Positions 5,145-10,348 of a stretch of 37,714 bases of DNA are shown here, one piece after another. A model generated the notes under the pieces. That model did not search any database and was not told where the DNA came from. It saw nothing but the letters and a program-made list of their open reading frames with translations. Position 1 is the stretch's first letter, and every line of letters begins with the position of its first letter. A program made the position numbers and the translations under genes. The stretch is from a virus (Duplodnaviria; Heunggongvirae; Uroviricota; Caudoviricetes). The stretch lies in IMG/VR virus record IMGVR_UViG_2526164601_000037; one strand, given 5' to 3'.

Positions 5145-5266
5145 GAAACCAGAACATGCACACACAAAAAAACCGCTTGCCATGCCGCAATCGGTCAGGT
5201 TACATTTCCGCTGCACCTCATAAAACGGGTGCCGGGATTCTCAACCCGATACAGAGCAAAGCGCAT

Positions 5267-5287
5267 AACCGCGCCAGCGGTTTTTTT
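5267..5287 (+). terminator. Weak candidate intrinsic terminator
   Basis: Short hairpin CCGC-GCCA-GCGG (5269..5280) followed by TTTTTTT (5281..5287). Confidence 0.35.
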
Positions 5288-5466
5288 GTGCGTACTGTAT
5301 TGCCACGTCTTTTTCGCGTCAGAATTATGGCGGGGCGTACGGGGCCGACTTCGGTCGGGCCGGATTCTTTGCTCTCCGGTGTTGAGAACCCTGTACGTCT
5401 CGCCACCCCGAGATTCTCAACTCTGGATGGTGAGCTATTTCTATCACCGAGCAAAGAGGCCACACC

Positions 5467-5697
5467 ATGGCAAACCGCAAACAACAGCGCGCATACGCTG
5501 CGCGTCGTCACATCCAGACTGAAATCAACCGCAGACTTTCCCGCGCATCACGCGTCGCGCAAATCATGCACATCAATATGCTGCATGAGCGCAGCCACGC
5601 ACTATCAAACATTTATTCCGCCTCTGTTTTCAGCTATCTGGCGGATGATCTGCACGAGCTTCAACAGCTCATCCAGCAGCAAAACAAACTCCATTAA
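5467..5697 (+). CDS. Hypothetical small basic protein
   Basis: ORF track, 76 aa; preceded by a structured intergenic region. Confidence 0.45.
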   Translation: MANRKQQRAYAARRHIQTEINRRLSRASRVAQIMHINMLHERSHALSNIYSASVFSYLADDLHELQQLIQQQNKLH

Positions 5698-5769
5698 TTC
5701 CTGTTCCGGGCCTTTCCTGCACCTTGCGGCGGGAGGCCTTCGCACATCTGTAGTAAAGAGAATTGCAGC

Positions 5770-6159
5770 ATGATTGACGCTCATGACTTCACAAGATGGG
5801 TGCGCACACAGGACACCAGTCTGGCTCCCGTTCTTCAGGGATTATTTGATCTCTACATCCGTGGTCGTGACAACAGAGCACGCACCACAAAACCAGAGAA
5901 TGCAGACACCCTTTATTTCACAGTAGACGACTGCTACCGCGTGGACTTCACACCACACGGGCTGGCGTTGCACTGCCTGACACCACACGGCGAATCACTA
6001 CTGGCGTATTACGACTCCCCGGCCTCCGTATTTGCGGCAATGCTGGCGCATCGCACTGCTGGCGGGTGTGCCTCGCTGAGTGAATACACCGCTGAATTTA
6101 ACCGCCTTTCCACCCTCTTCTCGCAGGAGTGGCAGCGCGTGACGGGATACCAGCCATGA
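5770..6159 (+). CDS. Hypothetical protein immediately upstream of, and translationally coupled to, gene A
   Basis: ORF track, 129 aa; its stop overlaps the A start (ATGA at 6156..6159). Confidence 0.55.
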   Translation: MIDAHDFTRWVRTQDTSLAPVLQGLFDLYIRGRDNRARTTKPENADTLYFTVDDCYRVDFTPHGLALHCLTPHGESLLAYYDSPASVFAAMLAHRTAGGCASLSEYTAEFNRLSTLFSQEWQRVTGYQP

Positions 6160-8996
6160 GTGAGTTTGCATGGAGCTGGAATGAACCACGGCCAGCCATT
6201 GATCCAGCCAGATTTACGGAGCACAGGCAGGAAACTGAAACCGACCTGCAACGCGCCATCCGTTACTACCTTGAGGCGGACAAAAGGGCACAGAAAGAAC
6301 AGGAAGCGAAGGAAGAAGCCTTTTTCGCACAATCCGCCATGGGTAAAAAACTCATGGCATCCCTTGAGGAAGCCGGACAGCGTGAAAAGCTGGCACAGAG
6401 CATCATCAGTAAGCGCCGGGCAACAGAACAAGACCCGGTAGCCCGTGCCTTTGCCACACTGAAGGCGCTTCCCGTTTATCTGCGAGAACCTCTGAGCCGC
6501 CACCTCTCTTTCCTGCGCAAGAAGCAGGAAGCCGATCGTCAGAAAGGCAAAAAGAGCTGGCAGGCGGAACGCTATGCACGCGGAACCCTGCGCAAAATAT
6601 TCGAACGTCTGGACCGCACCGACAGCCGCTGGCTGACACCGGGTTATCGCTCCCTTGCCGGACGCGAACGCCTGGACGATTTACTTTACCTGCCGCAGCT
6701 CAACAAACACCAGATACAGACGCTGGCCACCATGACGGCGGCGATGTTCAGCAGCACCTTCGAAAAACTCTGCGATGGCTTTGGCGCGACTGATGGCGAA
6801 CTGACCATGGATGTAACGCTGAAGGCGTATCAGATGCTGGCCCGCATGGCGTTACACCTGCACGCCATGCCTCCGCATTATGACGCACTGACAACAGACA
6901 AAGACCGGAGGAACGAACCGGACACGGAGCTGCTGCCGGGCGCAATCCTTCGCCTGACCTGTGCGGAATGGTGGAAACGAAAACTGTGGCTGTTACGTTG
7001 CGAGTGGAGAGAAGAACAACTCCGCGCCGCCTGTCTGGTTTCCAGAAAAACATCGCCCTATCTGAGCCAGGACGCGTTAAGCGAGTTTCGCGCACAGCGC
7101 GAGAAAACACGCGATTTCCTGAAAAGTTTCATGCTGGAAAATGAAGACGGGTTCACGATTGATCTCGAGACGGTGTATTACGCGGGAGTAAGTAACCCGG
7201 TTCACCGTAAGGCAGAAATGATGGCCACCATGAAGGGGCTGGAACTTCTGGCCGAAGCCCGTGGCGACAAAGCGGTGTTTCTGACTGTCACCTGCCCGTC
7301 AAAATACCACGCCACAACAGAGAACGGTCATCCGAATCCCAAATGGAACGGGGCCACCATGCGCGACTCCAGTGATTACCTGGTTAACACGTTTTTTGCG
7401 GCGGTCCGCAAGAAACTGAACCGCGACGGCCTGCGCTGGTATGGCATCCGCACGGTGGAGCCTCACCATGACGGCACCGTGCACTGGCATATGATGGTCT
7501 TTGCACATCCGGAAGAAATCGACACCATTGTGTCCCACACCCGCGATATTGCCATTCAGGAAGATCGTCACGAGCTGGGTGATGATATTACCCCACGCTT
7601 TAAGGCGGAGTACGTCGACGGCTCAAAAGGCACACCGACCAGCTACATCGCCACCTACATCGGGAAAAACCTGGACAGCCGTGCCGTGGATGGCATCGAC
7701 CCGAAAACGGGCAAGCCACGCGTTGACCACGAAACAGGTAAATCAATGGCCGAGAGTGTGGAGCGCGCCATCGGCTGGGCGCGCCTTCACCGGGTCCGCC
7801 AGTTCCAGTTCTTTGGCATCCCCTCCCGTCAGGTGTGGCGTGAACTCCGCCGCCTTGCCAGCCAGATGGCACGCAACCCGGAAGGCCCGCAACGGCTGAA
7901 GGATGACGCAATGGATGCGGTACTCGCTGCCGCTGATGCCGGATGTTTTGCCACCTACATTGAAAAACAGGGTGGCGTACTTGTTCCGCGCAAGGACTAC
8001 CTGATTCGCACCGCCTACGACCTCGCAGATGAGCTGAACGATTACGGCGAACAGAGTGTACAGATTTACGGGATCTGGTCGCCATTCATCGGGGAATCCT
8101 CCCGTGTGTGCACGCATCCGGATAACTGGAAGCTGGTAAGACGTAAACCGGAAGTGGAAGACAGCGCCCGCGAAAATGGTTTTGACCTTCAGGGCGGCCC
8201 TGCCGCCCCTTGGACTCGTGGCAATAACTGTCCCCGTGTACAGGAAACGGACAACAACGGGACAGAACAGCCGGAAGAACGGCCAGCACCGTGGCCGCAG
8301 CTCCCTGACGGCGTTGAAGTGAACGAATGGATGCGCTCACTGAAACGACACGAACGCCGGGCGCTGATGCGTTCGCTTCGTGACAAACAGGCAAAAAACA
8401 GCAGCGATGAAATGCAGAGCTGGACACAGAGCCGCAAACAGCAGCGGCCTTTGCCTGATAACCACGAATTACTCGCTAAAGAATGGCGGGAGTCTGCTGA
8501 ATCTCTCGGCCTGCATATCGGTGAACAACAGATGCAGCACCTGTTACGGGGCGGCAGTCTGTACGTTGACGGCAGCATCATTGCACCGCAGGGATTTGAA
8601 ATTGTACGCAAACCGGATACCCGCCCGGACAGCCGAATCACGCAGCTCTGGCAGCGCCTGAGCCGTAATCACGGTGTAAGCAGCACGGAGATCCGCCATA
8701 ACCCGATCGCCAGCTATCTGGAACAGCTGGGGGCATCAGACCCTGAAGCCGCCACACGCCTGGCATCCACACTTCAGCAGGACCAGAACACCATGAAAAC
8801 ACCCGTTACCGTGCTTTCTGACATGCTGCGCGCCATCCGCGACGCAGAGCACGCACAGAGAATCAGTGAAACCACTGAACGTGCCCGCCGCAAAGCAGAC
8901 CTGCTGCGGGGTGGCCTGACCAGTGGAAACAAAAAACAGACAGAAACGGGACTCACGAATCCCGTAAATGAGCAAAAAACGCGCAGCGATATATGA
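6156..8996 (+). CDS. A: Rolling-circle replication initiator (endonuclease), P2 gpA family
   Basis: HUH-type motif HWHMMVF and tyrosine motif YIATYIGKN; position at the end of the early operon. Alternative GTG start at 6129. Confidence 0.9.
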   Translation: MSEFAWSWNEPRPAIDPARFTEHRQETETDLQRAIRYYLEADKRAQKEQEAKEEAFFAQSAMGKKLMASLEEAGQREKLAQSIISKRRATEQDPVARAFATLKALPVYLREPLSRHLSFLRKKQEADRQKGKKSWQAERYARGTLRKIFERLDRTDSRWLTPGYRSLAGRERLDDLLYLPQLNKHQIQTLATMTAAMFSSTFEKLCDGFGATDGELTMDVTLKAYQMLARMALHLHAMPPHYDALTTDKDRRNEPDTELLPGAILRLTCAEWWKRKLWLLRCEWREEQLRAACLVSRKTSPYLSQDALSEFRAQREKTRDFLKSFMLENEDGFTIDLETVYYAGVSNPVHRKAEMMATMKGLELLAEARGDKAVFLTVTCPSKYHATTENGHPNPKWNGATMRDSSDYLVNTFFAAVRKKLNRDGLRWYGIRTVEPHHDGTVHWHMMVFAHPEEIDTIVSHTRDIAIQEDRHELGDDITPRFKAEYVDGSKGTPTSYIATYIGKNLDSRAVDGIDPKTGKPRVDHETGKSMAESVERAIGWARLHRVRQFQFFGIPSRQVWRELRRLASQMARNPEGPQRLKDDAMDAVLAAADAGCFATYIEKQGGVLVPRKDYLIRTAYDLADELNDYGEQSVQIYGIWSPFIGESSRVCTHPDNWKLVRRKPEVEDSARENGFDLQGGPAAPWTRGNNCPRVQETDNNGTEQPEERPAPWPQLPDGVEVNEWMRSLKRHERRALMRSLRDKQAKNSSDEMQSWTQSRKQQRPLPDNHELLAKEWRESAESLGLHIGEQQMQHLLRGGSLYVDGSIIAPQGFEIVRKPDTRPDSRITQLWQRLSRNHGVSSTEIRHNPIASYLEQLGASDPEAATRLASTLQQDQNTMKTPVTVLSDMLRAIRDAEHAQRISETTERARRKADLLRGGLTSGNKKQTETGLTNPVNEQKTRSDI

Positions 8997-9072: not shown

Positions 9073-10032
9073 ATGAAAATTTGTATCGACGACGGCTCCA
9101 CCAACATCAAGCTGGCATGGACTGAGAACAGCGAACGCCGCAACGCCATCAGCCCGAACAGCTTCAAGTCGGAATGGTCTGCGCCGTTCGGTGGCTCGCA
9201 GCCTGCGAACTACATGCTTGATGGCGTGCGCTATGGTTTTGATCCGGTCAGCGATCGCTTTGTCCAGACGACCGACACGCAATACCAGTACAGCGATGTG
9301 AATGTAATCGCCATTCACCACGCGCTGGTCAAATCAGGCATCACACCACAGGAGGTGGATGTGGTTGTCACCCTGCCACTGAGCGAGTATTTCGACACAA
9401 ACGCACAGCCGGACATGGCCAACATCAACCGCAAAAAAGCGAACGTTATGCGCCCGGTGGAGTACCAGAACGGTGAGGCATTCACTATCCGTAACGTGCG
9501 GGTTATGCCTGAATCCATTCCGGCTGGCTTTAAAGCACTGGCTGACATGAGTCCGTTTGAATCCCTGCTGATTGTGGATTTAGGCGGAACCACGCTGGAT
9601 GTGGCAAAGGTTCAGGGACAACTGGCAGGTATCAGCCAGGTGTTTTGCGATCCACACGTAGGCGTTTCCCTGATGGCCGATGCCGTACTGTCGGTGATGG
9701 CCACTAACGGTATGCGTACCAGTCACCACATCGCCAATACCATTATCGAACATCGCCATGATGAAGCCTGGCTGCGCCAGCACATCCACAATGACGCGCA
9801 TTACAACAGCCTGATGGCGGTTATTCGTGAAAAGGAAGAAACACTGAAACAACGCGTGATCCGCGCGCTGGCGGGTTTTTCGGGTTACGGGCGGGTGATG
9901 GTTGTCGGTGGAGGGGCGGAGATTGTGGCACCCGCTATCCGCGAAGCCTGCGGAGTTAATGCGACTTTCATCGCGGACGGGGTGCCACAGTTTGCTCTGG
10001 TTAATGGGCTGTACGCAATGGACAAGGAGTAA
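9073..10032 (+). CDS. parM: Actin-like segregation ATPase, ParM/StbA family
   Basis: N-terminus MKICIDDGSTNIKLAW and motifs SPNSF, YSDVNVIAIHHAL, VMPESIPAG, LIVDLGGTTLD, VMVVGGGAE match plasmid R1 ParM as recalled; RBS AAGGAAAAG. Confidence 0.9.
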   Translation: MKICIDDGSTNIKLAWTENSERRNAISPNSFKSEWSAPFGGSQPANYMLDGVRYGFDPVSDRFVQTTDTQYQYSDVNVIAIHHALVKSGITPQEVDVVVTLPLSEYFDTNAQPDMANINRKKANVMRPVEYQNGEAFTIRNVRVMPESIPAGFKALADMSPFESLLIVDLGGTTLDVAKVQGQLAGISQVFCDPHVGVSLMADAVLSVMATNGMRTSHHIANTIIEHRHDEAWLRQHIHNDAHYNSLMAVIREKEETLKQRVIRALAGFSGYGRVMVVGGGAEIVAPAIREACGVNATFIADGVPQFALVNGLYAMDKE

Positions 10033-10036
10033 ACCA

Positions 10037-10348
10037 ATGACGACACCAACCAGACGGATAAGTTTCTATCTGAAGCCCGCCGCCGTCAAGAACGAAGGCG
10101 AAGCATGCGCCTGGCTGGACAGCCTTACACCAGAAGCCCGCAAAAGCGGCCAACGCGTGGCTTTTCTGGCCGGGCTGGCACTTCTGAAAATGAATCCGGC
10201 AGAGGCTTACCGACTGGCTGCATGGGCTGACGATGAGGCGTTATCGGTGACACAAACCAGGACAGAACGCCCCGTGTCACAGCCAGTACCAACCGCACAG
10301 ATAACCAGTCAGATGGCAGGGAATATCCGGGCATTATTTCCTGAATGA
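10037..10348 (+). CDS. parR: ParR-like centromere-binding adaptor
   Basis: Immediately downstream of parM with strong RBS AAGGAG; ISFYLKP, AGLALL and C-terminal RALFPE resemble R1 ParR as recalled. Start trimmed to the ATG at 10037. Confidence 0.7.
   Translation: MTTPTRRISFYLKPAAVKNEGEACAWLDSLTPEARKSGQRVAFLAGLALLKMNPAEAYRLAAWADDEALSVTQTRTERPVSQPVPTAQITSQMAGNIRALFPE

Follow-up and report, generated by a model that had tools for sequence, protein, structure and literature searches.

In phages P1/P7 and P4, an antisense RNA of the C4 type is cut out by RNase P, and the control it exerts is translational as reported for P1 and by premature termination as reported for P4. In terms of RNA families, IsrK corresponds to the P4 seqA region and C4 to the P4 CI RNA, and an "IsrK-C4 immunity system" has been described in P4, P1, P7, N15, and lambdoid prophages, with the link from the Gifsy-1 IsrK to C4 drawn in the same study (Barquist 2013). 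In Gifsy-1, IsrK activates the translation of downstream genes in trans, and terminates leakily, the long form being translationally silent, and two structures (A and B) have been described; an ~80-nt processed RNA was also reported from the region that matches C4 here (Hershko-Shalev 2016). We found no mention of "phage P1", "immI", or "icd" in that IsrK paper, and a 2025 review carries IsrK and c4 as separate, unlinked entries.

Here, we propose that the gap at positions 5145 to 5466 of a 37,714-nt viral sequence (hereafter the window, meaning the whole stretch of DNA analysed) is, very probably, an IsrK-C4 antisense-RNA immunity cassette of the P1 c4 / P4 CI / N15 CA type in a P88-like prophage. 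The gap encodes two RNAs, a terminated IsrK-like leader and a C4 antisense RNA, and the repeats that crowd it are their RNA-RNA pairing sites (Table 1). Established here are family membership, RNA structure, three-way complementarity together with covariation, overlap with the Shine-Dalgarno sequence, and the identity of the downstream genes. The element is of an already known, curated kind and adds no new principle; since the dense repeats are the pairing sites of a catalogued antisense-RNA switch, no new class of element is needed. An earlier, sequence-only reading had offered three options for the region: a small RNA, which is what we find; an attenuator, which holds in part, as a terminated leader; and a protein-binding site, for which we see no support, as no operator-like sequence is common to the gap and the C/cox region. 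It had overlooked both the P1 c4 / P4 CI type of cassette and the fact that one repeat copy lies over the ribosome-binding site of the next gene.

Table 1. Features of the cassette and of the genes that follow it (window coordinates)
Feature	Position	Strand	Evidence or remark
A7CCGC box ACACACAAAAAAACCGCTTGC	5160-5180	+	just 5' of and overlapping the -35; inverted repeat I1
Predicted promoter, sigma-70-like: -35 TTGCCA, 18 nt, -10 TACATT	5177-5206	+	consensus match
IsrK-like leader RNA (P4 "seqA" region)	5213-5287	+	Rfam RF01394, 62.8 bits vs gathering score 50, model 1-77 of 77
a1 target/decoy box GGATTCTCAAC	5235-5245	+	loop of IsrK hairpin 2; complementary to C4 a'
b1 target/decoy box AGAGCAAAG	5253-5261	+	single-stranded in IsrK; complementary to C4 b'
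IsrK intrinsic terminator, AACCGC GCCA GCGGTT + U7	5267-5287	+	consensus match and fold
C4 antisense RNA	5323-5410	+	Rfam RF01695, 78.5 bits vs gathering score 45, model 1-87 of 87, E = 6.5e-14
b' antisense element AUUCUUUGCUCU	5364-5375	+	12-nt loop of C4 hairpin 2
a' antisense element GUUGAGAA	5381-5388	+	single-stranded C4 joiner
a2 target box GATTCTCAAC	5412-5421	+	downstream mRNA, between C4 and the next ORF
b2 target box GAGCAAAGA	5449-5457	+	overlaps Shine-Dalgarno AGAGG 5455-5459 of the ORF at 5467
First regulated gene, 76-aa derepression-family protein (eps-like)	5467-5697	+	Pfam PF25738, E = 5.6e-8
orf129, second gene: 129 aa, phrog_3237, function unassigned	5770-6159	+	end overlaps start of A
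Replication endonuclease A (P2 GPA family)	6129-8996	+	Pfam PF05840, E = 1.8e-131

Scanning the window against Rfam returned exactly two matches over the curated gathering scores, both of them in the gap, on the plus strand, and full length. CRISPR-DR33 and the other sub-threshold matches (E = 0.05-0.9) lay far under their gathering scores and were rejected. The predicted IsrK fold consists of two hairpins, a single-stranded stretch, and an intrinsic terminator, the last being the terminator-like hairpin with a T-run already noticed in the sequence-only reading (5267-5282, then T7). The predicted promoter would place the start of transcription near 5213, where the isrK match begins. Its -35 and -10 hexamers are invariant in 7 of 7 P88-like loci, the terminator likewise, and a promoter-like sequence sits at the equivalent place in every other module compared. 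Going by model scores, the upstream segment is better described by isrK than by c4-a1b1 (RF03163), which stays below its cut-off in the window (15.9 bits at 5200-5252 vs a gathering score of 46.7); elsewhere c4-a1b1 scores 51.0 bits in P1 and 48.1 bits in Gifsy-1, both of which pass, and 44.1 bits in P4, slightly under the cut-off. A second promoter-like site, at 5300-5328, was considered as a source of intact C4 and rejected: what serves as its -10 (AATTAT) belongs to the conserved 5' flank of C4, and transcription beginning 7 nt further on would start inside the C4 closing stem; the -35 of this site reads TCGCCA in most relatives.

The leader, which carries the a1 and b1 complements of C4, adjoins the antisense RNA across a gap of 35 nt. 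The C4 of the window outscores P1 c4 itself (78.5 vs 68.8 bits), and its minimum free energy (MFE) structure is the model structure (-47.6 kcal/mol, z = -4.86): a 17-bp closing stem (5328-5344 with 5389-5405), a UUCG hairpin (5345-5358), and a second hairpin (5359-5380) with a 12-nt loop, followed by an 8-nt joiner. Across 12 sequences, 99.7% of the cells of this fold are paired and 12 of the 27 pairs have changed on both sides in a compensatory manner, a level reached by 0 of 500 shuffles, with slid controls at 32-46% paired. The tRNA-like closing stem is among the parts kept by covariation. Folding of both strands, which had been suggested as a check, gave z = -4.9 and -2.5 for the plus-strand RNAs and worse values, -2.7 and -1.4, for those of the minus strand. 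The isrK-C4 tandem was found at the gathering score in all 11 related loci scanned (P88, P88_4B11, Citrobacter phage Shae_phiSM, Salmonella, E. albertii, and "Vagococcus" contigs, an Stx-like phage, Stx2a_1447, N15, ST64B, and P4). Both isrK and C4 are likewise present in Gifsy-1; in P1, a c4-a1b1 match takes the place of isrK ahead of C4.

The repeats that had been listed from the sequence mostly stand as described. GATTCTCAAC has exactly two copies in the 37.7-kb window (5236-5245 and 5412-5421), for a chance expectation of 0.04 and with two or more copies in 0 of 100 shuffles, and its complement GTTGAGAA is present at 5381-5388. Copies of GAGCAAAG lie at 5254-5261 and 5449-5456 as given; its complement CTTTGCTC is at 5367-5374, one base off the 5366-5373 first reported, and the GGCCGAC-TTCG-GTCGG hairpin exists with its end misplaced, spanning 5343-5358 and not reaching 5361. 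Extended, the direct-repeat copies measure 11-14 nt (ACAGAGCAAAG/ACCGAGCAAAG and CCGGGATTCTCAAC/CCGAGATTCTCAAC), and with their inverted partners of 9-11 nt they all fall inside 230 nt, in a consistent antiparallel order. The same-strand complements of a' and b' are 8-11 nt long, at 5235-5261 and 5412-5457, the b' element of the hairpin-2 loop being given as CUUUGCUC. On the downstream side, GAGCAAAGAGG reaches into the Shine-Dalgarno sequence, followed by 7 nt and the ATG at 5467; b2 continues into the Shine-Dalgarno sequence in 12 of 12 loci compared, and likewise in the P1 annotation.

We give hardly any credence to the notion that these are chance repeats around an ordinary inter-operon terminator, or else an array of protein operator sites. 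The GAGCAAAG 8-mer taken alone would fit it, as it is not significantly enriched (17 of 100 shuffles reach three matches), but GATTCTCAAC is enriched, both RNA families exceed their gathering scores, and the boxes co-vary three ways. The motifs common to the gap and the C/cox operator region were only low-complexity 8-mers, and no complete LexA-type box (CTGT-N8-ACAG) was seen by eye in 5150-5330.

In every locus compared, two box pairs, one on either side of C4, complement its loop and joiner, and the box sequences themselves are phage-specific; the sequence-only reading had made conservation of the repeats or of their pairing potential its test, and it is the pairing potential that is kept. 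A MAFFT alignment of seven P88-like loci shows an almost invariant scaffold with the variation concentrated in six boxes. In these seven, a'/b' with a1/b1 have 96.6% of cells paired and 10 of 17 pairs compensatory (slid controls 24-56%), and a'/b' with a2/b2 have 96.6% paired and 9 of 17 compensatory (slid controls 42-50%). For a larger sample, the window and the six earlier P88-like loci were joined by those that could be parsed among 80 further IMG/VR loci, giving 68 parsed loci; the further loci came from a scan of viral contigs, a scan with the 76-aa protein over genome contigs having yielded 3 loci. The 68 loci hold 14 loop/joiner combinations (10 loops and 7 joiners), with cognate complements averaging ~9 and ~7 nt vs 3.4-4.6 nt for non-cognate ones. 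The a and b boxes reassort independently among P88-like loci, and the P88-type C4 boxes read CUGUAGUUG and GUGGAAA. Such variation is what one would expect if diversifying selection acted on an RNA-RNA recognition code.

Some loci show box changes of other kinds. In E. albertii, a1 and a2 differ in length from those of the other loci in a matching way, by +1 and -1 (L006 3772-3779 and 3948-3955; A1 columns 115 and 285), such that both target copies stay identical and complementary to a'. In an IMG/VR contig (L047, ~95-396, 5' of eps, which starts at 397), C4 is chimeric and has its b' loop twice in tandem, first in the window type (ATTCTTTGCTCT) and then in the P88_4B11 type (GTTCTTGTGTAG), with targets of the P88_4B11 type only, which looks like the footprint of recombination between two box types. 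Lastly, the a-boxes of P4 (L003) and of the Stx-like phi349 (L009) are strand-swapped: the P4 C4 has UUCUCAC and its targets GUGAGAA, and the phi349 C4 has GUGAGAA and its targets UUCUCAC, so that the two C4 RNAs could pair with each other.

Could the region instead encode a protein? A 205-aa ORF (5156-5773) runs across it, is open in 7 of 7 P88-like loci, and gives a weak match to Pfam Phage_ASH (PF10554; 19 bits in the window, 26.5 bits in P88_4B11). That this is a real Ash-family protein is nonetheless very improbable, and we rejected it: the window score is under the Pfam cut-off of 26 bits, the E. albertii +1 indel at a1 and -1 at a2 would put ~57 codons into another frame, and in the overlap with eps 9% of changed codons are synonymous in the 205-aa frame vs 45% in the eps frame. 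In addition, the variation within this ORF is concentrated in boxes that co-vary as RNA pairs, and Phage_ASH matches translations of the equivalent RNA module in P4 and N15. Several database entries translate the cassette RNA as protein; the P88_4B11 record calls the 205-aa frame a "transcriptional regulator", and a related record labels the region "similar to ash family protein".

Two observations on annotation extend beyond the window. A long open frame lies over the IsrK-C4 module, and Phage_ASH matches the translated module in N15, P4, and P88_4B11; the positions concerned are 5156-5773 (+) in the window, 2457-3074 in L007, 8168-8584 (-) in P4 (L003), and 2100-2390 in L011. The family thus has the look of an RNA gene that was translated, not of a protein. 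In Stx2a_1447 (L010 1646-2797) and ST64B (L012 1647-2804), the CDS annotated as "antirepressor"/Sb41 crosses the isrK and C4 matches (2006-2194 and 2001-2189, respectively); here the true ORF start is probably the ATG just 3' of b2 and the annotated starts over-extended.

Set beside the immI region of P1/P7 (c4, icd-ant), the antisense cassette shares the C4 family and the order, on one strand, of promoter, a1, b1, C4, a2, b2 with the Shine-Dalgarno sequence, and a small first ORF. The P1 GenBank record annotates a1, b1, c4 (as misc_RNA), a2, b2, and icd, with spacing within 1-2 nt of the window where comparable (P1 record vs window: 14 vs 15 nt from a1 start to b1 start, 10 vs 9 nt from b2 to the ATG). 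GAGGCC follows b2 in both, and the annotated P1 promoters P1c4 and P2c4 occupy a position equivalent to that of the window promoter, which, unlike in P1/P7, has no evident C1-type operator. The two also differ in their upstream segment (c4-a1b1 in P1, isrK in the window), in what lies downstream (icd-ant1/2 vs an epsilon-like protein, orf129, and the A nickase), and in P1/P7 being plasmid prophages whereas the window belongs to an integrating P2-family phage.

The satellite phage P4, whose immunity region runs PLE - seqA - CI RNA - seqC - epsilon - orf151 - alpha, has isrK (60.8 bits) and C4 (74.9 bits), with epsilon as the next functional gene and a replication gene farther on in the operon. 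In contrast to the window, its IsrK-C4 spacer is 107 nt (35 nt in the window), its replication gene is the alpha primase-helicase rather than a P2-type A endonuclease, its box sequences are unrelated, and its cassette stands at the start of the operon, that of the window being in the middle of a long early operon; the window also has no orf151 homologue. The anti-immunity locus of N15 (CA RNA, antA/B/C) has isrK and C4 in tandem (62.4 and 78.8 bits), followed by small ORFs and an antirepressor. Its a' box (GUUGAGAA) is identical to that of the window, but the b' box and downstream genes differ, and the cassette is a separate locus 3' of the replication gene, labelled "cA: secondary immunity repressor" in GenBank. 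In Gifsy-1 isrK-orf45-anrP, isrK scores 79.3 bits and is followed by a C4 match of 69 bits, which falls on the published "orf45" / STnc1160 segment (L014 2048-2131); the downstream gene there encodes the AnrP antirepressor, the host phage is lambdoid, and the locus adjoins the late antiterminator Q gene.

P2 and 186 share with the window an early operon of C-type repressor, cox/apl, small ORFs, and then A. No isrK or C4 was found in the early regions of either, even at E <= 1, and 186 uses the LexA-controlled Tum antirepressor instead of the cassette. Thus, of the three, only the P88-like branch has the cassette, as an addition to the shared operon.

The source element is a P88-like (Xuanwuvirus, Peduoviridae, P2-family) E. 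coli prophage. Of 5,426 complete E. coli genomes, 1,470 have matches to the 5-kb region that surrounds the cassette, with 98% identity at the best places listed; over the gap itself, identity to phage P88 and relatives of it is 84-87%. The cassette lies within a long rightward early operon, 3' of MarR-like and ead-like genes, in a prophage whose repressor, at 2163-2474, is of the P2 C type (39% identical to P2 C). The first gene after the cassette encodes a protein with 33% identity to P4 epsilon (E = 1e-9); orf129 showed no similarity to P4 orf151 when the two were compared; and RefSeq homologues of A start at the equivalent of 6156. A tRNA/tmRNA search of the window found none. From its family and the P2 C-type repressor, the eps-like gene would fit a putative antirepressor or anti-immunity operon, with anti-repressor activity of its product suggested by homologues. 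A near-identical eps-like gene is found as well in another prophage, the repressor of which is similar to the C type only in the N-terminal HTH, so the target of the eps-like protein may not be the phage's own repressor.

Directly 3' of A, the window holds a ParM actin-like segregation gene and a StbB/ParR-like plasmid stability gene (9073-10348, +). The classic carriers of C4-type RNA, P1, P7, N15, and P4, are all known to persist as plasmids, and taken with these genes this suggests that P88-like phages may have a plasmid phase. One of the related contigs, NZ_JBQPOM010000071.1 (L005), is labelled Vagococcus sp., a Gram-positive, and contains a P88-like enterobacterial prophage segment with an eps 93% identical; this is likely contamination or a mislabelled assembly.

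In light of this being an IsrK-C4 cassette, how might it work in the prophage? By analogy with the homologues, we infer promoter use, RNase P processing, a translational block with polarity, decoy action, and an epsilon-like anti-repressor activity. The constitutive-looking internal promoter would fire near 5213, and most transcripts would stop at the terminator, giving a ~75-nt IsrK-like RNA that displays a1 and b1. As in Gifsy-1, the terminator would be leaky, and read-through transcripts would carry C4 (~5328-5405 with a short tail). The 12-nt b' loop and 8-nt a' joiner of C4 would then pair with a2 and b2, either in cis, on the unprocessed transcript, or in trans. Since b2 overlaps the Shine-Dalgarno sequence of the eps-like gene, such pairing would block its translation, and polarity from this block would lower the expression of orf129 and A. 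We propose that the a1 and b1 boxes on IsrK compete for C4, so that the IsrK:C4 ratio sets the switch, and that each phage represses only its own type, as related phages have different box sequences. The sequence alone does not distinguish translational control (as in P1) from premature termination (as in P4) or refolding in cis (as in Gifsy-1), and the latter two each supply an alternative to the scheme just given.

One option is that C4 acts as in P4, pairing with a1/b1 and a2/b2 on the nascent transcript and causing premature termination 5' of eps-orf129-A rather than mainly a block of translation. The P4 immunity region likewise has an isrK-C4 pair followed by epsilon, its layout of C4, epsilon homologue, and replication gene is the closest synteny to the window, and P4 uses the isrK-C4 pair for immunity (Barquist 2013). 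However, we found no terminator-like site between C4 and the ORF start, and b2 overlaps the Shine-Dalgarno sequence in every locus, P4 included, so that both phenotypes would follow from a translational block and subsequent Rho polarity. We therefore regard P4-style termination as a tentative possibility, and one that does not exclude the main model.

Another option is a riboswitch-like leader acting only in cis, as in Gifsy-1, where the C4 segment would sequester a2 and b2, IsrK in trans would open the structure, and free processed C4 would have no role. In the predicted MFE structure of the full leader, C4 (5364-5391) does pair in cis with 5412-5457, and structures A and B with trans-activation by IsrK are on record (Hershko-Shalev 2016). 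This we consider unlikely for the window. The Gifsy-1 model relies on translation of an "orf45" that ends at the start of the next gene and is coupled to anrP, but the window frame from the ATG at 5327 continues to 5773, with no equivalent coupling possible, and the covarying tRNA-like closing stem fits a processed, stand-alone RNA as in P1, where c4 is annotated as misc_RNA.

In lytic growth, transcripts from the upstream early promoter must somehow pass the IsrK terminator, a point that weighs against the main model. The sequence-only reading had missed a further inverted repeat of 21 nt, in which the A7CCGC box is 90% complementary to 5273-5293, the 3' half of the terminator with its U-tract. 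The box is near-invariant in P88-like loci regardless of the upstream gene, and the P4, N15, Stx, and ST64B modules in which it was looked for lack it. With the box in the transcript, the terminator hairpin is predicted to form at the decision point with a probability of 0.56-0.71 instead of 0.97, and after the U-tract has emerged the long-range box helix is predicted to dominate. Over 85 loci the two arms hardly vary (one matched A6/T6 change and one unmatched T6), which is too little for a covariation test. As a speculative and rather improbable idea, the box might be an anti-terminator through which the terminator senses the promoter of origin, early-lytic transcripts reading through into C4-eps-orf129-A and those from the internal promoter ending as the IsrK decoy. 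If true, this would explain how a P2-family phage without N-type antitermination expresses its replication gene across an immunity terminator. Alternatively, the A-tract of the box, which occupies -47 to -41 relative to the IsrK start, may be no more than an UP element.

Our searches of the literature found no experimental study of the P88-like cassette context. The variable boxes of the antisense cassette, in at least 14 combinations among 68 loci, would provide a ready set of mutually independent RNA repressor-target pairs. With its position before the eps-like gene and A, and with the surrounding 5 kb matched in over a thousand complete E. coli genomes, the cassette is probably a second layer of immunity and of induction control in P88-like prophages.
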